Shown piece after piece: positions 29,124 through 64,000 of a DNA stretch of 64,000 nt; within the stretch, counting starts at the first letter, position 1, and each line of letters opens with the position of its first letter. The notes below the pieces were generated by a model. That model saw nothing but the letters and a program-made list of their open reading frames with translations. It did not search any database and was not told the origin of the DNA. A program made the translations under genes and the position numbers. Origin of the DNA: an uncultured Verrucomicrobiota bacterium (GTDB lineage: Bacteria; Verrucomicrobiota; Kiritimatiellia; JAAZAB01). Location: positions 55 to 64,054 of the forward strand of contig CAZALU010000006.1 in NCBI GenBank assembly GCA_964486075.1. Reading direction: 5' to 3'.

Positions 29124-29371
29124 ATTCTCCACATATCGCATTTGTAGATTTCCGTTTTTTTTGTCATGGCGTTCCTCTTATTTGTTTAGGGTTGTTATTG
29201 TTTGACCCTGAATATTGCACGATCATCGTGCAATATTCAGGTCTTAAAACAGGCATATTTCGATGACGGGGAAGACGGCGTTAGCGCCGTCCGTAGGTTT
29301 GTTCAGCGGAATCAATTGCATCGCTTCTGCCCCATTACCCGGACCGCAAAAATTACTTAACTACTCAGGTT

Positions 29372-29445
29372 GTCATCCTGAGCGTAGCGAAGGATCTCAT
29401 GTTGGTTGGCAGACAGATGAGATTTCTCGCTACGCTCGAAATGAC
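29372..29445. repeat. palindromic element GTCATCCTGAGCGTAGCGAAGGATCTCAT...ATGAGATTTCTCGCTACGCTCGAAATGAC ('CHPERSEGS'-type)
   Basis: about 29-bp imperfect inverted repeat with 16-nt spacer; lies downstream of cbpM. Confidence 0.6.
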
Positions 29446-29682
29446 AATCTTTGCTTATCCGGGTTTTTTCAGGCAACCTCCCCAGTAACACGGGATGCCG
29501 AATTTGACATAACAGATTAATATATAACGTGTTTCTTTCTTTGCACCGCCGGCCGCCGGCGGTGGTTTCGCTGAGTAGTTACAAAATTACTGGGCTAGGA
29601 TTTTGAGTTTTACCGCGTCACTCCCACTGCGCCATACGGTCGGTGCGCAGAGCAGTTGTATAGACCGGCTCCTGCCGAAAGA

Positions 29683-30060
29683 TCAGTACGTCGGATCCGA
29701 TTCGGAGAGGCGCTGTTCCAAATCGGCAACGCGGTCGAGCAGATCGAGCACCAGCGGCAGGGACGCGAAATCAATGCCCAACCCAACATGAATCCGCAAC
29801 AGCTTGCGCACCTGGAAAATAGTTTCCACCGGGAAAAATAGTTCCACGCCCGGTCCAGCGGGAACAATCATATCCCACTCCAGCAACTGTTCAATCACTT
29901 CCGGAGTGGTCCCGGCCAGATAGGCCAGCTCAGAGAAGGTCAGCAGGGGCCGCTCTTCCGGCGCTTGCTCCAGCGGACTTTCCATATAATCACGGGTGGA
30001 CGGATCAACAATCATGGCCTTTTTATCCTTGGCATGTACCGTCCTTCGGTCGGGCTGCAA
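29683..30060 (-). CDS. cbpM: chaperone-modulator CbpM (MerR-like)
   Basis: LTFSELAYLAGTTPEVIEQLLEWDMI...; downstream of cbpA; start uncertain. Confidence 0.65.
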   Translation of the reverse strand: MQPDRRTVHAKDKKAMIVDPSTRDYMESPLEQAPEERPLLTFSELAYLAGTTPEVIEQLLEWDMIVPAGPGVELFFPVETIFQVRKLLRIHVGLGIDFASLPLVLDLLDRVADLEQRLSESDPTY

Positions 30061-30090
30061 CCGACTTCGATAAAATCGGTCTTCTTTTCA

Positions 30091-30437
30091 AGGCCCGCGA
30101 TCAACGATCGCGGCTACAACACAATTTCCCTATTAGATTGAATCATGTCGTGCCAGCGCTTTTCTTGCTTTTTCCGAGGCCCGCGATCAACGATCGCGGC
30201 TACAACATAATTTCCCTGTTAGATTCAATCATGTCGTGCCAGCGCTTTTCTTGCTTTTTCCGAGGCCCGCGATCAACGATCGCGGCTACAACACAATTTC
30301 CCTATTAGATTCAATCATGTCGTGCCAGCGCTTTTCTTACTTTTTCCGAGGCCCGCGATCAACGATCGCGGCTACAACACAATTTCCCTATTAGATTCAA
30401 TCATGTCGTGCCAGCGCTTTTCTTACTTTTTCCGAGG
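30091..30437. repeat. tandem repeat, 4 copies of an 86-bp unit each carrying hairpin CCGCGATCAACGATCGCGG
   Basis: units at 30091, 30177, 30263, 30349 differ by 1-3 SNPs; entire unit repeated (not CRISPR). Confidence 0.85.
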
Positions 30438-31406
30438 ATCGAACGTAGAGACGCGCCCCAGCTCCTCGAACAACTGCTTCTCCTTTTCGTTAATATGGCG
30501 GGGAACGGCGATCTGAACAACTGCCATCAAATCTCCGGTCGGCCCGCGCGATCCGCCAGGCATGCCTTTGCCCCGCAAACGAAAACGCTGACCAGCCTGC
30601 GTGCCGGCCGGCAGGGTCAGGGCAGCCTTGCCCTGCATGGTTTCCACGGGCACCTTGGCACCCAAGGCAGCTTCCCAGGGCGCTACCGGAACCGAAACCT
30701 CAAGTTCCCGGCCATTCAGTCGGAACAACGGATGCGGCTTGATATTAACCCGTAAATACAAGTCGCCGGCCGGACCGCCACCCCGGCTCGGCCCGCCCTG
30801 CCCCGCCAGCCTGATCCGTTCTCCATCGAGAGTGCCCGGCGGTATCCTGACCTTGTAACTCCGCGAGCGCCGCTGGACCCGGTTATTCGGCCCCAGTTCC
30901 GCCGATTGCAGAGTGATGGTTTTATGCGCGCCGTGGAAGGAGTCCGTCAGATCGATCGTGACCGCGGCCTCATGATCTTCGCCGCGCGGGGTCCAGGTAT
31001 GGGCACCGCCGGCGGCGCCGGGACCGGCGCCGTGAAACTGCGCACCCCCGAAAAGCGTTTCAAAGAAATCGCTGAATCCGCCCAGGTCTTCCGGACGGAA
31101 CCCGCCCGTGGATTCCGGGCGGCCTTGAAATCCATGACGCATATTTTCCCAGCCAGGTGGCGGGCGAAACTCCTGGCCGTTGCGGTAATCGGCACCCAGC
31201 TGATCATAACGCTTGCGTTTCTCAGGATCGCTAAGCACTTCATAAGCCTCGCCAACATCCTTAAACTTATTCTCGGCGTTCGCGTTCTTATTGATATCCG
31301 GATGAAACTGGCGGGCGAGCTTCCGGTAGGACTTGCGGATATCGTCCGCAGTAGCCGTCCGGGGCACCTTCAGCACCTCGTAATAATCTTTGAATTGCAC
31401 GGACAT
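30423..31406 (-). CDS. cbpA: curved-DNA-binding DnaJ homolog CbpA
   Basis: J-domain DYYEVLKV...HPD; Gly-rich linker; two C-terminal DnaJ domains, no zinc finger; stop codon lies inside last repeat unit. Confidence 0.85.
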
Positions 31407-31416
31407 GATCTTATAC

Positions 31417-33129
31417 TCAAATCGCCGGACCCAGATTCGCCATACTGCTAAGTTGGAGATTTCCGGTTTTCCCGGATAGCGGACGGACCGGCTCCTCGGC
31501 GTTTTCGGCATAATAAATGGCGGTCAACTCCTGCAAAGCCGTTTCGCATGCGTCTGAAATAGCGCCCGCATGCGTCAGCAGTTCATGATCGATCAGCGTC
31601 CGTAGAAACAATATTCTCCAACGCCAACAGGCCCGTGCACGCGCCGGCAGCTTGGCATCAGCTTCGCGCATCAAGGCATACGCCTTGGCAATGCCTTCGG
31701 GCTTGGCGATGACGATTCGCGAATTTTCCGGGCTGTTTTGCATGCGGCGCAGCAGTGTTTCCTCTAGCAGACGAATAGCTTCAGTAACCGGCTCGACAAC
31801 CTCCGGAGAGAATTCGTAGGCGATATATTCGCGGACCACGTCTTCCGCAGAACCGTCGCCGCTCCAGAATAATTGCGTGCAAATAACCTTATTGATGTCC
31901 TCGTAGATTCCTTCGGAATATGGGGCCCCGCCGGCCATGACGGATTCCACCTGGCGCCAGTATTGTTGCAGGCGCGCGGGCAGCGGATTGGCGCCATATC
32001 CCCCCCAGGGATGGCTGCCAAACATGCTGATTTCCGGAAAGCAGACCATTTGCAAACCGCCGGGCGCACCGTGCTTGAGCGGAAACTCGGGAAATTCCCC
32101 AAGATACCCGTCAGCCAGCATATAATCCACCCAGTCCGGGCGTTCACGGAAGGCCTCGCTCAGCCCGGCCCATTCACCCTGCGTAAAATAATCGAGATTC
32201 CAGGTACTGAGAACTATTTTAACGCCGGGGAAACACCTGCGCGCCAGCCGGGCAACCGGCTCCGCAACCTTCAGGTAGCCGTTGGCGGCCCAGGGCTTGC
32301 AAAGAGAACAGGTGCAACCGCCCTGGTCATACGGCCACAAGGCCACATAATCCAGGCGAATATCAGCAAAGGCCGCGAAGACCTCCGCCCGCCATTTCAG
32401 CAGCAATTCCATGGCGCCCGGCTTGTTCGGGCACAGCTCCACATGGTAGTGATAAAGATCACGCGTGTACCCATCGTGTCCTGCCGTCCAGTCCGCTTTC
32501 ATCGCAACCGGGCTCGGGGTAAAGGCTTCGTTTCCAAGAACGATCAGCAAGGCGCCCAGCCCCACCCCATTGGCCGCCTTGAGCACACGGTGGAGCCGCC
32601 CGACCATCTCCTGGGCCGCCGGATCGTCCATCCCGGTGTAATGATGCATATCGAACCAAACGCCAACACAGTTATAGCCCCAGAGTCCCAACTCCTCCAC
32701 GTAGCGCTCCAGCTTTTCAGGCGGGGCGTCATGATACCAGTTATGAAAATGCGTGGCAAAATATATGGCCCGGAACGGCTTGCGCGGGGCCAGGGTCCCG
32801 CGCCAGGTGCCCGGTTCCAATCCGCCTTCTGCATAGTGGCAGGTTCGCAGGAACTTGCCGGCCCCGTAAAGCACTCCGCGCTCGTCGCCGCCGACGATGC
32901 GGATATCCCCTTGCGCGCCGTCCTGGATCTTAAAAGTCTCCTGAGCGAGTTGCGCATCCGTTTCAAGAACAAGCGTCAGTTCGCCCGCCGCGGAGCGCTT
33001 GCCGGCCGCAATCGTTACCGTAAATTTTGCGCCGCAGCGCTCCCTCAGCTCGCGCTGCATTATCTCCGCCGTCCTGCGAAGCGTTGGCGCCGGATTGACC
33101 GGCAATTGAATCAGCATGTTTTTGATCAT
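31417..33129 (-). CDS. putative glycoside-hydrolase-like protein (TIM-barrel; GH20/GH115-like N-domain)
   Basis: weak family resemblance only ([21 protein letters not shown]). Confidence 0.4.
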
Positions 33130-33269
33130 AATTCTACATTTGCTTCTTTCTTGAGTCTGAATGCTATAACTTAAAATAAAAATGTCAATTGTCTTTCATC
33201 GAATAGCTCCAGTTGATATTTGCGCACAGGCCAACAGCGTGCTATGGTAGTGCATTCGTGGAACATAAA

Positions 33270-34490
33270 ATGATTGGCATTCATCCATTTAAAGCCCTGC
33301 GTCCGCTCCGGCGACTGGTAGACCGGGTATCCTGTGTGCCCTATGATACCGTGGACCGGGCGGAGGCAGCGGCGCTGGCCCAGCACAACCCGAGCAGTTT
33401 TTTGCGAGTATCGCGTTCCGAAATCGAGCTCCCGACATCGGTCAATCCTTACAGCGCCGAAGTATACACCAGGGCTGTGGCCAATTTTAAACACTTGCTC
33501 AAGCAGGGGGTGTTCGTGCAAGAATCAGCGCCATGCCTGTATCTCTATCGCCTGCGCCGTGGCGCACATACCCAGGCGGGAATCGTGGCCTGCTGTCATG
33601 CGGACGATTACGAGCAGGACATCATCAAGAAGCACGAAAAGACACGGCAGGACAAGGAAAACGACCGGACGCGGCACATGGCAGCGATCAGCGCCCACGG
33701 CGGTCTGGTATTTCTGACCTATCGCGATCAGACCGATATTGACGCCCAGGCGCGCGCGATCGAAGCGACTCGCCCGCTCTATGATTTCACCGCGCCGGAC
33801 GGAGTCATTCACACGATCTGGCGCATCCGGAAAACGAGATGCCTGGTTAAAATGTTCGAAGAAATCCCGGTCTGCTACATTGCCGACGGTCATCATCGAG
33901 CCGCCAGCGCAGCGCGCGTGGCCCGGGAACAACGCGCCGCCAACCCCGGGCATGACGGCACGGAAGAATACAACTGGTTTCCTGTCGTTCTGTTCCCCGC
34001 CAGCCAGCTTGAAATCCTGCCCTACAACCGCTGCGTGCGGGATTTGAACGGCAGAACGGCACCCGAATTCCTGGCCGCTGTGCGCGCACGGTGTCCGCTA
34101 ACCTCCCCCGGCCGACCGGCGCCCGCTGGGCCAGGCTACGCCAGCCTGTATTGCGCCGGGCAATGGCATGATTTAGCCCTGCCTCCGGCGGCGGAGGCGG
34201 ACCCGGTTGCCACCCTGGATGTCAGCCTGCTGCAATCTCGCGTCCTGGCGCCGCTGCTGGGGATTACCGATCCCAGGACGGACAAGCGCATAGATTTCAT
34301 CGGGGGGATTCGAGGAACGCAGGAACTCGAACAGAGAGTAAATTCCGGGAGAGACGCGGTCGCGTTCTCCATGCATCCGGTCACAGTCCGGCACCTGATG
34401 GCCATCGCCGACGCCGGCCAGATCATGCCTCCCAAAAGCACCTGGTTCGAGCCAAAAGTCAGGTCCGGCCTACTGATCCACACCTTCTGA
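33270..34490 (+). CDS. DUF1015-family protein
   Basis: MIGIHPFKALRP... start typical of DUF1015. Confidence 0.6.
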   Translation: MIGIHPFKALRPLRRLVDRVSCVPYDTVDRAEAAALAQHNPSSFLRVSRSEIELPTSVNPYSAEVYTRAVANFKHLLKQGVFVQESAPCLYLYRLRRGAHTQAGIVACCHADDYEQDIIKKHEKTRQDKENDRTRHMAAISAHGGLVFLTYRDQTDIDAQARAIEATRPLYDFTAPDGVIHTIWRIRKTRCLVKMFEEIPVCYIADGHHRAASAARVAREQRAANPGHDGTEEYNWFPVVLFPASQLEILPYNRCVRDLNGRTAPEFLAAVRARCPLTSPGRPAPAGPGYASLYCAGQWHDLALPPAAEADPVATLDVSLLQSRVLAPLLGITDPRTDKRIDFIGGIRGTQELEQRVNSGRDAVAFSMHPVTVRHLMAIADAGQIMPPKSTWFEPKVRSGLLIHTF

Positions 34491-59636: not shown

Positions 59637-60875
59637 TCAGCGTTTTTTCGGCGCCCGGCGCCGCCGATCCAATCCAAAAGCCTTGTGCAGCGCTATCACG
59701 GCGCCGTCCGCCAACGCGCGCCTGATCAGCACCGACACCTTTATTTCCGAAGTCGAAATCATCAGGATATTGATACCCTTATCCGCCAGGGCCTTGAACA
59801 TCTTAAAGGCGACTCCCGAATGCCCGCGCATCCCGACCCCAACAATGCTGATCTTGGCGATGTCTTCGTCGACCTTGATGGACTTGACCCCCACCGATTT
59901 CGCCGCCGTCTGAATGGCCTGGCGCATGTCGGCCAGATCCTCCGCCGGCACGGTAAAAGAAATGTTCGCCAGCCCGTGTGCGCCGACGTTCTGAACGATC
60001 ATGTCCACATTGACGCCGGCGCCGGCCAGCTTGCCAAACAGCTGCGCCGCGATCCCGGGCTTATCCGGCAGCCCGGACAAGGTGATCTTGGCCCCGTCTT
60101 TATCCGCCGACACGCCACGTACAATAACATCTTCCATGCTCTTGACCTCCTCCTTGACCAGGGTTCCCGGCACACGTAAAAAACTGGAAAGAACTTCCAG
60201 TTCCACGCCGCACTTCTTGGCATACTCCACCGCACGCGACATAAGGACCTTGGCCCCCAAGCTGGCCAGTTCCAGCATCTCGTCATAGGCAATTTCATCT
60301 AGTTTTCGAGCCTGCTTGACCACGTGCGGATCCGCCGAATAAACGCCTGCCACGTCGGTAAAGATTTGGCAGCGATCCGCTTTCAACGCCGCCGCAATGG
60401 CCACGGCCGTGGTGTCCGATCCGCCCCGTCCCAGGGTGGCGATATCGCTTGCCGGGGTCAACCCCTGGAATCCGGCCACAATAACCACATGCCCTGCTTT
60501 CAAATGTCGCCCAATGCGCTGGGGGTCAATCCCGATTATTTTCGCCTTGCGATGGATGGCATCCGTGGTAATTCCCGCCTGGGGCCCCGTCAACGAGACG
60601 GCGTTCGCCCCCATGGCATTCAGGGCCATGGCCAGCAGGGCCACCGATACCTGCTCTCCGGTGGACATCAACATATCCATTTCCCGGTCGCTCGGAGTGG
60701 GCGTGATTTTGTGAGCCAACTGGATTAATTCGTCCGTGGTATCGCCCATGGCGCTGACCACCACAACCATTGAATTACCCTTACGCTTCATCTCCAGGAT
60801 ACGCCCGGCCACCCGTCGGATGGCTGCCGGATTGGCCACGGAACTACCGCCGAATTTCTGAACTATCAAACCCAT
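59637..60875 (-). CDS. lysC: aspartate kinase
   Basis: IVQKFGGSSV...VVVVSAMGDTTD; ACT domains. Confidence 0.9.
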   Translation of the reverse strand: MGLIVQKFGGSSVANPAAIRRVAGRILEMKRKGNSMVVVVSAMGDTTDELIQLAHKITPTPSDREMDMLMSTGEQVSVALLAMALNAMGANAVSLTGPQAGITTDAIHRKAKIIGIDPQRIGRHLKAGHVVIVAGFQGLTPASDIATLGRGGSDTTAVAIAAALKADRCQIFTDVAGVYSADPHVVKQARKLDEIAYDEMLELASLGAKVLMSRAVEYAKKCGVELEVLSSFLRVPGTLVKEEVKSMEDVIVRGVSADKDGAKITLSGLPDKPGIAAQLFGKLAGAGVNVDMIVQNVGAHGLANISFTVPAEDLADMRQAIQTAAKSVGVKSIKVDEDIAKISIVGVGMRGHSGVAFKMFKALADKGINILMISTSEIKVSVLIRRALADGAVIALHKAFGLDRRRRAPKKR

Positions 60876-60998
60876 ACTCTTCCCTCCCCTCCCCTGCAGA
60901 ATTTTCCCGCCTGACCATCTGAGTCAGGCCCATATGCGCTTCGCGATCGTGACATTTCTTATTGTAGCTGACGTCGTTGACGTCGGACTTCATTCTAA

Positions 60999-61024
60999 AC
61001 CGCGATCAGCGATCGCGGCTACAG
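60999..61024. repeat. solitary copy of the hairpin core of the 86-bp tandem unit (CCGCGATCAGCGATCGCGGCTACA)
   Basis: matches CCGCGATCAACGATCGCGGCTACA of 30091-30437 with 1 mismatch. Confidence 0.55.
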
Positions 61025-61049: not shown

Positions 61050-62354
61050 TCAGAAATCCTCAATCCGGTAGCGCACGGTTTTCGCGCCAACAATATTTTT
61101 CATATTATCGATCTCGTCCAACGCCGCCCGGAATGATTGTTCCTGAGCCTGGTGCGTGATGACGATCACGGGCACCTGTTTACCGGCCTGCACCTCTTTC
61201 TGCAGCAGCGAGGCGATGCTGATCCCGTGTCGGCCCAGCACAGCCCCGATTTGCCCGAACACGCCCGGTTTGTCGAGCAGGGTCAAACGCAGGTAATAAC
61301 GAACCTCGCTGGCGCCGATTGCCCGGATCCGGCCGGCCGGATTATGGTTGGTAAAGCCCGGCGCGCGCCGGGGCGCCTTGCAGACCAGGTTCCGCGCCGC
61401 ATCCACAACATCGCTCAACACGGCGCTGGCGGTCGGGTCCCGACCCGCGCCTTGCCCGTAGCACAGCACCTCGCCCACGCCATCGCCGTCGATCAGCACA
61501 GCGTTGAACACACCATGCACCGAGCTTAAAATGTGCCCGGCGGAAACCAGGGTCGGATGGGCCCGGATCTCCACTTCGTCGCCGATTTCTTTGATCACCG
61601 CCAGCATCTTAATCCGGTAGCCCAATTCCCCGGCATAACGGATGTCCACGGCCTCGACGCCCCGGATGCCTTCAACTGTCACCGCCGGCATGGGCACATG
61701 GAACCCGTACGCCAGCGACGCCAGAATAACCGCCTTATGCGCCGTGTCGATCCCGTCTATATCCAAGCCCGGTTCCGCCTCCGCATAGCCGGCTTTCTGG
61801 GCATCTTTGAGCGCCCGCTCGAACGAGACCCGATCCTGTTCCATGCGGGTCAGGATGTAATTGCAGGTTCCGTTCAGGATACCGTAAATCCGTCGAATGC
61901 GGTTCGACACCAGGCCTTCCCGCAGGGAGCGAATCAGCGGAATACCGCCCCCCACGCCAGCCTCAAAGAAAACGTTGGTTTGATGCGCTTCCGCCAGGCT
62001 GAAAATTTCCTCTCCCCGTTCCGCCAGCAAAGCTTTATTGGCCGTAACCACCGGTTTACCCAAATGCAGCGCTTGCAACAAAAGTTCTCGGGCCGCCCCC
62101 ACCCCTCCGATGAGTTCAATCACCACGTCCACATCCGGCGCGTTCACCACACCGGCCGCATCACGGGTCAGCAAGCCCGGCGCCAGCGGCACACCCCGGT
62201 CCCGTTCTAAGTCCACATCGGCCACCCGGCGCAGGACGAGCTTGAGGCCGGTCCGGCTTTCAATCAGATCGCCGTTATCGCGCAGCGTTTTCACAACCCC
62301 GGCTCCGATAGTGCCGAAGCCCAGCAAGCCTAGTCCTATTTCCCTGCTTTGCAT
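61050..62354 (-). CDS. hom: homoserine dehydrogenase
   Basis: LLGFGTIGAGV NAD site; C-terminal ACT. Confidence 0.85.
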   Translation of the reverse strand: MQSREIGLGLLGFGTIGAGVVKTLRDNGDLIESRTGLKLVLRRVADVDLERDRGVPLAPGLLTRDAAGVVNAPDVDVVIELIGGVGAARELLLQALHLGKPVVTANKALLAERGEEIFSLAEAHQTNVFFEAGVGGGIPLIRSLREGLVSNRIRRIYGILNGTCNYILTRMEQDRVSFERALKDAQKAGYAEAEPGLDIDGIDTAHKAVILASLAYGFHVPMPAVTVEGIRGVEAVDIRYAGELGYRIKMLAVIKEIGDEVEIRAHPTLVSAGHILSSVHGVFNAVLIDGDGVGEVLCYGQGAGRDPTASAVLSDVVDAARNLVCKAPRRAPGFTNHNPAGRIRAIGASEVRYYLRLTLLDKPGVFGQIGAVLGRHGISIASLLQKEVQAGKQVPVIVITHQAQEQSFRAALDEIDNMKNIVGAKTVRYRIEDF

Positions 62355-62641
62355 AACTAATCCAAATTCTTTAACCGACCATTGCATGCGCAAAATCAAA
62401 AATGGTCGGACGCGACTAAACGTGTCTCTTCATATAAACTACACTTTAATGTTAGAGAGCCATATTGCGTTATGGCCGTTCCTTCCGATTTGTTTAATGG
62501 CTTCTCTAACGGCATGAATTAGGGAAATTAACATGCTCGCCCGGTCTTTCAAGCATAAATATTATTTGAAATCTACGTTGACATTTCGCGCCGCTGCCCT
62601 ACAATGCCAAACTTTGTCTTATTCAACACTAGGAGATTTTT

Positions 62642-63802
62642 ATGGACTACGGACTGACCGAACAACAGGTAATGATTCAGGATATTTGCCGGCAAATTGC
62701 GCAGGACAAAATAAAGCCGGTGCGAGAACACTATGACGAAACCGGCGAATTCCCCCACGAGATCCTCAAGATTTTCGCGCAGTCCGACCTGTGCGGCCTG
62801 TACATCGAGGAAAAATACGGCGGCATGGGCGGCGGAGTAATGGACCTCTGCGTGGCCGTCGAGGAACTCTCCAAGGTCTGCAGCGGCATCGCCCTGAGCG
62901 TGGCGGCTACCGCTCTGGGCACCTTCCCCATCATCCTTTACGGCAACGATGAACAGAAGCAGAAATACCTGCCGCGCATCGCCAAGGGCGAATCAATTGC
63001 CGCGTTCGGTCTTACCGAAGCCAATGCCGGCAGTGACGCCGGAGCCATCGCCACCACCGCCGCCCGCGACGGTGATTGCTACGTGCTAAACGGCACCAAG
63101 CAGTGGATAACCAACGGAGGCGAAGCCGATATTTATACGGTAGTGGCCAAGACCGACAAGACCAAAGGCCCGCGGGGCGCCAGCGCCTTCATCCTGGAAA
63201 AGAACATGCCCGGATTCACCTTCGGCAAGAAGGAAAACAAGATGGGCATCCGCGCCTCCGCCACGCGCGAACTGGTGTTCCAAGATTGCCGTGTGCCCAA
63301 GGCCAACCTGCTGGGCAAAGAAGGCCTGGGTTTCATCGTCGCCATGAAAACGTTCGACCAGTCCCGACCGGGCGTTGCCGCCCAGGCGCTGGGCATTGCC
63401 GCCGGCGCGCTGGACGAGGCCGTGCAGTACAGCCGTCAACGGCGTCAGTTCGGCAAACCGATCTGCTCGTTCCAGGGCATCCAGTTCATGCTGGCCGACA
63501 TGGCCACCCAGGTCGAGGCCGCACGCCTCCTGGTGTACCAGGCCGCCCGCCATATCGATAGCGGCGCCAAGGACGTCGCCAAGATCTCGGCCATGTGTAA
63601 AATGTATGCCTCGGACACAGCCATGCGCGTTACTACCGACGCCGTTCAGATCTTCGGCGGCTACGGGTACATGAAGGAATACCCCGTCGAGAAAATGATG
63701 CGCGACGCCAAGATCACCCAGATCTACGAGGGCACCAACCAGATTCAGCGCGAAGTAATCGGCCTGAATCTGATCAAGGAAGCCGCCGGCCGGAAGGCCT
63801 GA
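62642..63802 (+). CDS. acyl-CoA dehydrogenase (short-chain/butyryl-CoA type)
   Basis: ACAD N/M/C blocks; YEGTNQIQ. Confidence 0.9.
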   Translation: MDYGLTEQQVMIQDICRQIAQDKIKPVREHYDETGEFPHEILKIFAQSDLCGLYIEEKYGGMGGGVMDLCVAVEELSKVCSGIALSVAATALGTFPIILYGNDEQKQKYLPRIAKGESIAAFGLTEANAGSDAGAIATTAARDGDCYVLNGTKQWITNGGEADIYTVVAKTDKTKGPRGASAFILEKNMPGFTFGKKENKMGIRASATRELVFQDCRVPKANLLGKEGLGFIVAMKTFDQSRPGVAAQALGIAAGALDEAVQYSRQRRQFGKPICSFQGIQFMLADMATQVEAARLLVYQAARHIDSGAKDVAKISAMCKMYASDTAMRVTTDAVQIFGGYGYMKEYPVEKMMRDAKITQIYEGTNQIQREVIGLNLIKEAAGRKA

Positions 63803-63807
63803 GAAGA

Positions 63808-64000
63808 GAGGCGGGAAACCCGTTGGGCCTTCCCGCCCTACAATTCGGATTGTCCTGCTGTAGGGCGGGCACGTACCGTCCGCGGGATTGCCCACCGCAT
63901 CCGTTCCAAGGTGTATTGTAGGGCGGGCACGTCACGTCCGCGGGATTGCCCGCCACATCCGTGCCGAGGTTTATTGTAGGGCGGGCACGTCACGTCCGCG
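63808..64000. repeat. REP-like array, about 58-bp unit TATTGTAGGGCGGGCACGTCACGTCCGCGGGATTGCCCGCCACATCCGTGCCGAGGTT repeated about 2.5x, truncated by window end
   Basis: direct sequence comparison. Confidence 0.7.

Follow-up and report, generated by a model that had tools for sequence, protein, structure and literature searches.

In Escherichia coli, intercistronic REPs of the malE-malF type stabilize the mRNA of the upstream operon segment, and mycobacterial MIRU-VNTR loci consist of tandem units of 40-100 bp that are found within operons, extend over the stop of the preceding gene, and vary in copy number. GTAG-tagged REPs occur in the PVC superphylum, their GTAG termini can donate TAG stops, and REP singletons reiterated in tandem with flanking DNA are a described class (Di Nocera, De Gregorio & Rocco 2013, PMC3733652). 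REPs of group 3 have a length of 23 nt, with a perfect 8-bp stem and a 3-nt loop, and cleavage takes place at C|T on the 5' or 3' side of the hairpin (PMC8266576). CbpM inhibits CbpA and has been described as conserved in gamma-proteobacteria (PMC4063869).

Here we describe a tandem array between a cbpA-like and a cbpM-like gene in a 64-kb window, that is, the whole stretch of 64,000 nucleotides that was analysed, of a metagenome-assembled genome (MAG). We consider it probable that the array is a REP cluster of the type "singleton reiterated in tandem with flanking DNA", made in place; an effect on the expression of the two genes is plausible.

Tandem array between the cbpA-like and cbpM-like genes

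Tandem Repeats Finder (TRF) detected a single strong array here, with a period of 86, 4.0 copies, 97% matches, and a score of 659. Its exact periodicity covers 347 nt, which corresponds to 4x86 + 3 or 4.03 copies, arranged head-to-tail. The four tandem 86-bp units described in an earlier note on this DNA are thus borne out. Units are numbered in transcription order.

30091-30437, minus strand: tandem array, 4.03 copies of an 86-bp unit (TRF, unit alignment, and exact periodic extent)
30352-30437, minus strand: u1, first unit (unit alignment)
30266-30351, minus strand: u2, second unit (unit alignment)
30180-30265, minus strand: u3, third unit (unit alignment)
30094-30179, minus strand: u4, fourth unit (unit alignment)
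30091-30093, minus strand: 3-nt CCT overlap beyond u4 (exact periodic extent)
30423-31406, minus strand: cbpA-like gene for a class II J-protein of 327 aa (Pfam DnaJ and DnaJ_C)
29683-30015, minus strand: cbpM-like gene, intact, 110 aa, MerR_2 (Pfam PF13591, E = 3e-11)
30016-30090, minus strand: unique spacer of 75 nt from the array to the cbpM-like start, with no other copy in the window or the fetched loci

The cbpA-like protein aligned over its full length with NCBIfam NF007618 (curved DNA-binding protein) at 265 bits, which is below the 403-bit cutoff. The cbpM-like protein is 87% identical to its closest relative, and its best PDB match was CbpM 3UCS, a weak match (E = 0.045, residues 25-100). 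Its start was set at the ATG at 30015 by alignment to the relative L122, and an AAGGA Shine-Dalgarno-like motif is retained 10 nt upstream of this ATG. A protein with a J domain and DnaJ_C, without a zinc finger, is followed by a small protein of the MerR_2 fold, which is the layout of a cbpA-cbpM operon, and this order is conserved in relatives. The gene pair is best called cbpAM-like, with a predicted function. As a separate observation, this pair (29683-31406; relatives L122-L131) is found outside the gamma-proteobacteria, with a MerR_2 partner that resembles 3UCS weakly at the E value given above.

On the minus strand, the order is cbpA-like gene, array, and cbpM-like gene, all co-directional, in agreement with the proposal that the tandem amplification took place within an operon. 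The gap between the two genes measures 407 nt (30016-30422), of which 75 nt are unique, so that the array does not fill the whole intergenic space as had been stated. Directly upstream of cbpA lies a 570-aa ORF (31417-33129, minus strand) with no Pfam match at E <= 0.001, and the same sequence is present on Logan contig L001. About 235 nt downstream of the cbpM-like stop, we observed an 82-nt near-perfect palindrome (29367-29448, GTTGTCATCCTGAGCGTAGCGAAGGATCTCA...TGAGATTTCTCGCTACGCTCGAAATGACAAT; DNA fold z = -6.6), which looks MITE-like and gives spurious ORFs containing "HPERSEGSH" and "YARNDN".

Unit composition and REP palindrome

A 26-nt core consisting of the hairpin and CTACAAC, CCGCGATCAACGATCGCGGCTACAAC, occurs exactly four times in the array, and there were 0 matches at up to 3 mismatches in 100 dinucleotide-preserving shuffles. 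The absence of the core from shuffles, together with the strong TRF array, indicates that the array is real in the sequence and not a chance pattern. Folds agree with the perfect 8-bp stem and 3-nt loop followed by CTACAAC that had been noticed before.

Read on the sense strand, the unit is CCTCGGAAAAAG-(T/C)AA-GAAAAGCGCTGGCACGACATGATTGAATCTAATAGGGAAATTGTGTT-GTAG-CCGCGATC-GTT-GATCGCGG-G. It is a composite of 12 nt of the cbpA 3' coding end (P-R-K-K) with TAA or CAA, 44 nt of unique DNA, and a 23-nt GTAG-tagged REP. The stop codon of the cbpA-like gene is the TAA at 30423-30425, and the last four codons and the stop (30423-30437) lie inside u1. The earlier note had correctly placed this stop inside the unit at 30352-30437 but had called it the last; because the genes are on the minus strand, it is the first unit downstream of cbpA.

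The units are near-identical (97%), as had been claimed, but they do not carry 1-3 SNPs each: relative to the unit consensus there are none in u1, none in u2, three in u3, and two in u4, and the cbpA-proximal pair u1 and u2 are exactly the same. Units u1 and u2 have TAA and units u3 and u4 have CAA, seen on the window strand as A at 30425 and 30339 versus G at 30253 and 30167; beyond this position, u3 has two private SNPs and u4 has one. The polymorphism proposed to create the TAA is therefore real, but its direction had been assumed and cannot be inferred from the data. If a CAA-type unit were placed first, CbpA would gain 17 residues (QEKRWHDMIESNREI(V/M)L) and end at the TAG of GTAG. Given a period of 86, which is not a multiple of 3, the array is non-coding. 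A coding repeat or a CRISPR-like array was considered and rejected, based on this period and on the lack of unique spacers.

The REP within the unit is 23 nt in length and comprises GTAG, unpaired in the fold, and a perfect 8-bp stem with a 3-nt loop, which is within the 20-40 nt and the 6-9-bp stem that characterize GTAG-tagged REPs. We write the REP of the source genome as GTAG-CCGCGATCGNTGATCGCGG.

30353-30375, minus strand: REP of u1, 23 nt, GTAG + CCGCGATC + GTT + GATCGCGG (8-bp stem in fold)
30267-30289, minus strand: REP of u2, GTAG-tagged (core search)
30181-30203, minus strand: REP of u3, GTAG-tagged (core search)
30095-30117, minus strand: REP of u4, GTAG-tagged (core search)

Predicted RNA folding

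Single-unit RNA folds predict a second hairpin, repeated in every unit.

30374-30409, minus strand: second hairpin, example of u1 (single-unit RNA folds)

In this hairpin, ACGACAUGAUU pairs with AAUUGUGUUGU over 11 bp, including 3 G.U pairs, around a loop of 14 nt. The hairpin takes in the first two bases of GTAG (G and T) and is specific to the sense strand, the plus strand lacking it in RNA folds. Support for it is weak, with z about -2 to -2.6 per unit and one supportive SNP, a change in u3 from a U.G pair to U-A, which is a single data point and no evidence of selection. The sense RNA thus has two predicted hairpins per unit and eight across the spacer. A region of 471 nt folds with z = -5.5 versus shuffles, a value that is expected, since tandem copies of a palindrome would fold better than shuffles anyway.

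REP copies elsewhere in the window

In BLAST comparisons with the window and 119 fetched loci, only the (T)GTAG and hairpin part of the unit recurred outside the array, and the non-REP 59 nt of the unit and the 75-nt spacer had no second copy in either. The REP core is present again at 61000-61022, with a GCT loop instead of GTT. Although this copy does lie between hom and lysC, where a "solitary" core had been described at 60999-61024, it is one arm of an inverted pair.

60964-61022: inverted REP pair (REPIN-like) between hom and lysC, arms GTAGCTGACGTCGTTGACGTCGG (plus strand) and GTAGCCGCGATCGCTGATCGCGG (minus strand)
61050-62399, minus strand: hom, flanking the inverted pair
59637-60875, minus strand: lysC, flanking the inverted pair

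Read along the window, the pair runs from 60964 GTAGCTGACGTCGTTGACGTCGG to CCGCGATCAGCGATCGCGGCTAC 61022. Its arms have the same architecture, with stems that differ by paired changes. The 64-kb window therefore contains two REP loci with five core copies and one variant arm; GTAG abuts the stem in five of five window copies, and all copies are extragenic, between Pfam-supported ORFs (the cbpA-like and cbpM-like genes, and hom and lysC). Loose matches to a GTAG hairpin numbered 7 in the window versus a shuffle mean of 4, an excess that is not clear. We also considered the 75-nt spacer as a decayed inverted partner of the REP and rejected this, as 297 of 2000 shuffles aligned equally well to the left arm of the doublet at 60964. 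The window had no tRNAs that we could find.

A second REP-bearing tandem array is located at 63859-64000, where it runs off the end of the window. It has a 58-bp unit (TGTAGGGCGGGCACGTCACGTCCGCGGGATTGCCCGCC...) in at least 2.4 copies that are 91% identical, and it begins exactly at c|TGTAG. A GTAG palindrome of opposite orientation (GTAGGGCGGGAAGGCCCAACGGGTTTCCCGCC, 63811-63842) precedes it, immediately downstream of the stop codon of an acyl-CoA dehydrogenase gene (62642-63802). The presence of this array points to tandem REP clustering as a general trait of the genome.

REP copies in other genomes

An exact-match scan for the 23-nt REP core GTAGCCGCGATCGNTGATCGCGG, with one genome per species, returned at least 119 loci (L002-L120) with at least 133 exact REP sites in MAGs of several phyla, and we found no match in viral contigs. 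Among the matches listed, approximately 38 loci are labelled Alphaproteobacteria and other proteobacteria, approximately 36 Verrucomicrobiota, approximately 22 Planctomycetota (Tepidisphaerales and Phycisphaerales), and approximately 18 Lentisphaerales or Victivallales, with a few others. The GTAG REP type is thus common to MAGs labelled Verrucomicrobiota, Lentisphaerota, Planctomycetota, and Alphaproteobacteria. Other MAGs contain at least 13-19 REP loci each. The closest DNA matches to the window among the fetched loci, in MAGs of Verrucomicrobia and Phycisphaerales, are approximately 70% identical.

Elsewhere, the REP mostly occurs as an inverted doublet TGTAG-hairpin...hairpin-CTACA among the matches listed. 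GTAG was demanded by the search pattern and is hence present at all 133 listed sites; the preceding base, left free by the pattern, is T in 132 of the 133. The doublet form and the T before GTAG are a signature of GTAG-tagged REPs and REPINs. Inverted dimers are thus seen in the pair at 60964-61022 and at most foreign sites, and the array itself is composed of singlets. The designation of the unit as REP-like holds, as a GTAG-tagged palindrome that recurs in the window and, mostly as inverted doublets, in at least 119 foreign loci. The presence of an identical REP in MAGs labelled as at least four phyla might be explained by horizontal transfer of a RAYT/REP type or by contaminated bins. Partner hairpins differ by lineage: GCGGTC..GACCGC in Alphaproteobacteria, CCGGCCTCACCGAGGCCAGC in Lentisphaerales, and CCGCGATG..CATCGCGG in Tepidisphaerales.

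Further tandem arrays on the same REP core were found at L065 (63 bp x 16.7), L103, and L104. The one at L065 (4996-6047) has a REP doublet as its 63-bp unit, with copies 96% identical, on an alphaproteobacterial MAG contig of 1.0 Mb, and is a much larger example of REP/REPIN tandem amplification.

Origin of the array

The cbpA-cbpM junction of nine relative contigs was compared with that of the window.

L122, L123, L129 (87% CbpM identity): junction of 7 nt, reading ...GATCCTCGGAAAGGTTGAACAGGCCATGA...
L127, L128, L130, L131 (79% CbpM identity): junction of 8 nt
L124, L125 (67-68% CbpM identity): unrelated 77-nt spacers

Both the REP and the array are absent from the junction in all nine. In the two nearest sister lineages, seven contigs show a junction of 7-8 nt that lacks the REP, which indicates that the array, and with it roughly 390 extra nt, is specific to this lineage. 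The last approximately 20 nt of the spacer (AAGGATAAAAAGGCC) look homologous to the ancestral tight junction of L122. The opening 9-12 nt of the unit are cbpA coding sequence, and GAT CCT CGG AAA (D-P-R-K) is conserved at the cbpA 3' end in relatives. Because each unit opens with cbpA codons, it must have been copied from host DNA in situ rather than imported as a block.

The duplicated segment extends from the CCT codon of the terminal P-R-K-K of cbpA to the first base after the REP hairpin. Its two ends have only the trinucleotide CCT in common, and both ends and every internal junction read CC|T. An overlap restricted to CCT fits slippage or template switching at the hairpin, although the duplication mechanism cannot be told from 3 nt. 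We propose that a GTAG-tagged REP and some unique DNA would have settled in a cbpA-cbpM junction that was ancestrally 7-8 nt in length, and that an 86-bp local segment would then have given rise to a head-to-tail duplicate and, by further amplification, to at least four copies. At the hairpin, the replication machinery may have slipped or switched templates, with unequal recombination between copies thereafter. The order of two identical TAA units and then two CAA units fits stepwise duplications.

Alternatively, a RAYT could have made the duplication by a C|T cut three bases 3' of the hairpin and another in the CCT codon of cbpA, with joining of the ends and multiplication of the unit. The CC|T at both segment ends and at each internal junction agrees with this, as does the 23-nt group-3 architecture of the REP, given that, in vitro, RAYTs carry out strand transfer and cleave C|T on the 5' or 3' side of REPs (PMC8266576). 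However, CT is frequent, and by a rough estimate the chance of a 3-nt overlap containing CT is approximately 1 in 8. Motif and tblastn searches found no RAYT gene in the 64-kb window; the sole Y1_Tnp gene in the 119 fetched loci (L028, Pfam E = 1.7e-9) is flanked by different, unrelated palindromes; and other arrays on this REP core start at the GTAG end rather than at a distal CT. We therefore regard a RAYT-made duplication as unlikely. A still more far-reaching possibility is that the array is a contingency locus built by a REP-associated transposase, which would have copied host DNA together with the cbpA end by cutting and joining C|T at the REP; the gain and loss of units would then reversibly reset cbpA/cbpM spacing, mRNA structure, and the CbpA C terminus. 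If this were true, a REP/RAYT system would reversibly remodel a coding end and the stoichiometry of an operon; we consider it highly improbable.

Assembly and copy number

The window derives from a MAG contig of 64,753 bp, on which one NCBI protein is identical to the window protein. In an independent k-mer assembly, Logan SRR8925755, contig L001 matches 100% over 30408-34425 and stops exactly 30 nt into the array, and the exact CbpA protein was found solely in one Logan contig of this accession. Logan assemblies are de Bruijn assemblies with k = 31. A break 30 nt into the array is thus as expected at a true repeat of at least two copies, and not at a single copy.

Could the four copies be an expansion caused by short-read mis-assembly in the MAG? 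In favour of this, the sequence comes from a MAG contig (64,753 bp), two of the units are identical, and the short-k Logan assembly breaks at the array. On the other hand, there are three distinct unit variants with 5 SNP positions in an ordered layout, where an artefactual expansion normally yields identical copies; the Logan contig end points to a real repeat; and collapse, that is under-counting, is likelier than expansion. An assembly artefact thus appears very unlikely. Considering that the MAG contig is probably based on short reads and that u1 equals u2, it is safest to put the copy number at four or more, and the true count may exceed four. Searches for exact copies of the cbpM-like protein, for which three alternative starts were considered, and of P0001 found no other assembly, no match to a 24-nt unit-specific word came up in a metagenome scan, and a second assembly of this lineage spanning the array was not found by protein look-ups or the word scan.

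The array should act as an unstable minisatellite. Its chief use would be as a VNTR-type strain marker, and it cautions that, in MAGs assembled from short reads, such repeats cause breaks or wrong copy counts.

Possible effect on expression

The best-supported statement is a structural one: a junction that is tight enough in relatives for translational coupling has given way, in this lineage, to a spacer of 407 nt with eight predicted hairpins. Transcribed as part of the operon mRNA, this spacer would bear four modules of two hairpins each, and tight translational coupling of cbpA and cbpM would be abolished. By analogy with the intercistronic REPs of E. coli, the upstream cbpA segment would be protected by the hairpins against 3'-to-5' decay, and the balance would shift to the benefit of the co-chaperone CbpA and at the expense of its inhibitor CbpM. 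The likely consequence, we infer, is a loss of tight coupling combined with stacked mRNA hairpins favouring CbpA over CbpM. As CbpM inhibits CbpA (PMC4063869), the net effect of a lower relative level of cbpM would be more active CbpA.

Altered cbpA/cbpM coupling had been suggested in the earlier note. The tight junction, 7-8 nt in relatives, is indeed physically broken. Attenuation or termination is unsupported: there is no terminator-like site on either strand of 30016-30437, where the sense-strand hairpin is followed by GCCUCGGAAAAAG and not by a U-tract, and Rfam 15 gave no match at gathering thresholds in the whole window and none at E <= 1 in 29600-30600. The array also has no promoter-like site. 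The earlier functional idea is plausible and reasonable, if unproven, and its mRNA-stability part is drawn from the analogy with E. coli REPs.

A serious rival, and quite possibly the correct reading, is that the array is a neutral selfish or junk repeat, a by-product of REP-associated instability that is tolerated and has no meaningful effect on cbpA/cbpM expression. It is absent from all relatives and so is not a conserved regulatory feature, similar arrays exist at unrelated loci, and terminator-like, promoter-like, and Rfam signals are lacking. Moreover, the cbpM-like gene is intact and has kept the AAGGA motif upstream of its ATG. Yet a change from 7-8 nt to a structured spacer of 407 nt is unlikely to be wholly silent for a downstream gene that was probably once translationally coupled. 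This reading shares its origin with the best explanation and differs from it in effect size only.

Alternatively, the array could be a selected cis-regulatory RNA (an attenuator, thermometer, or riboswitch) or a MIRU-like minisatellite that relays translation via small ORFs. It is situated inside a stress-chaperone operon, it has a sense-strand-specific hairpin with G.U pairs, and each unit contains a mini-ORF of 10 codons that starts with ATG and uses the TAG of GTAG as its stop. Against this, the Rfam search was negative even at E <= 1, no terminator-like site was found, the array is conserved in no relative, the 86-bp period is not a multiple of 3, the mini-ORF is without a Shine-Dalgarno motif, and covariation cannot be assessed at a single locus. 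Either role is hence very doubtful.

We continue to favour a REP cluster made in place that would uncouple the two genes. If this effect holds, the locus offers a clear natural before/after case, a 7-8-nt junction in sisters versus a structured 407-nt spacer, and it would show how REP-driven amplification can uncouple the cistrons of the stoichiometric inhibitor/target pair CbpM/CbpA.

Comparison with known systems

Mycobacterial MIRU-VNTRs resemble the array in their tandem units inside an operon, their overlap with an upstream stop, and a copy number that is expected to vary here too. There is no sequence relation, however, and the unit here is organized around a REP palindrome, has a length not divisible by 3, and lacks a relay ORF overlapping the downstream start. 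With the E. coli malE-malF REPs, the locus shares stable stem-loops between two operon genes on the transcribed strand and the absence of a U-tract. It differs in having four direct copies rather than an inverted BIME, and its host is uncultured and known from sequence.

Similarity to REPIN/RAYT systems (Bertels & Rainey 2011, PMC3116915) is seen in the inverted doublets that this REP core forms elsewhere and at 60964-61022. By contrast, the array units are REP singlets in direct orientation and not doublets, the unit was copied along with host DNA and not transposed, and the window has no RAYT gene. Group-3 REPtrons (PMC8266576) likewise have a 23-nt element with an 8-bp stem and a 3-nt loop, and here, too, C|T dinucleotides adjoin the hairpin.

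The closest match is with GTAG REP clusters (PMC3733652), of which the E. coli BIMEs are the classic case. They have in common with the array a short perfect palindrome with an unpaired GTAG at one end, an extragenic site near a stop codon, and a host of the PVC superphylum, and their tandem-with-flank class has exactly the structure of the cbpA-cbpM array. The donation of TAG stops has a parallel as well, in that the GTAG of the array would end cbpA if the first unit had CAA. A difference is that the reiterated flank here includes four codons and the stop of the upstream gene. In conclusion, the array is a real and ordinary REP cluster of an already described class, in an uncultured organism.
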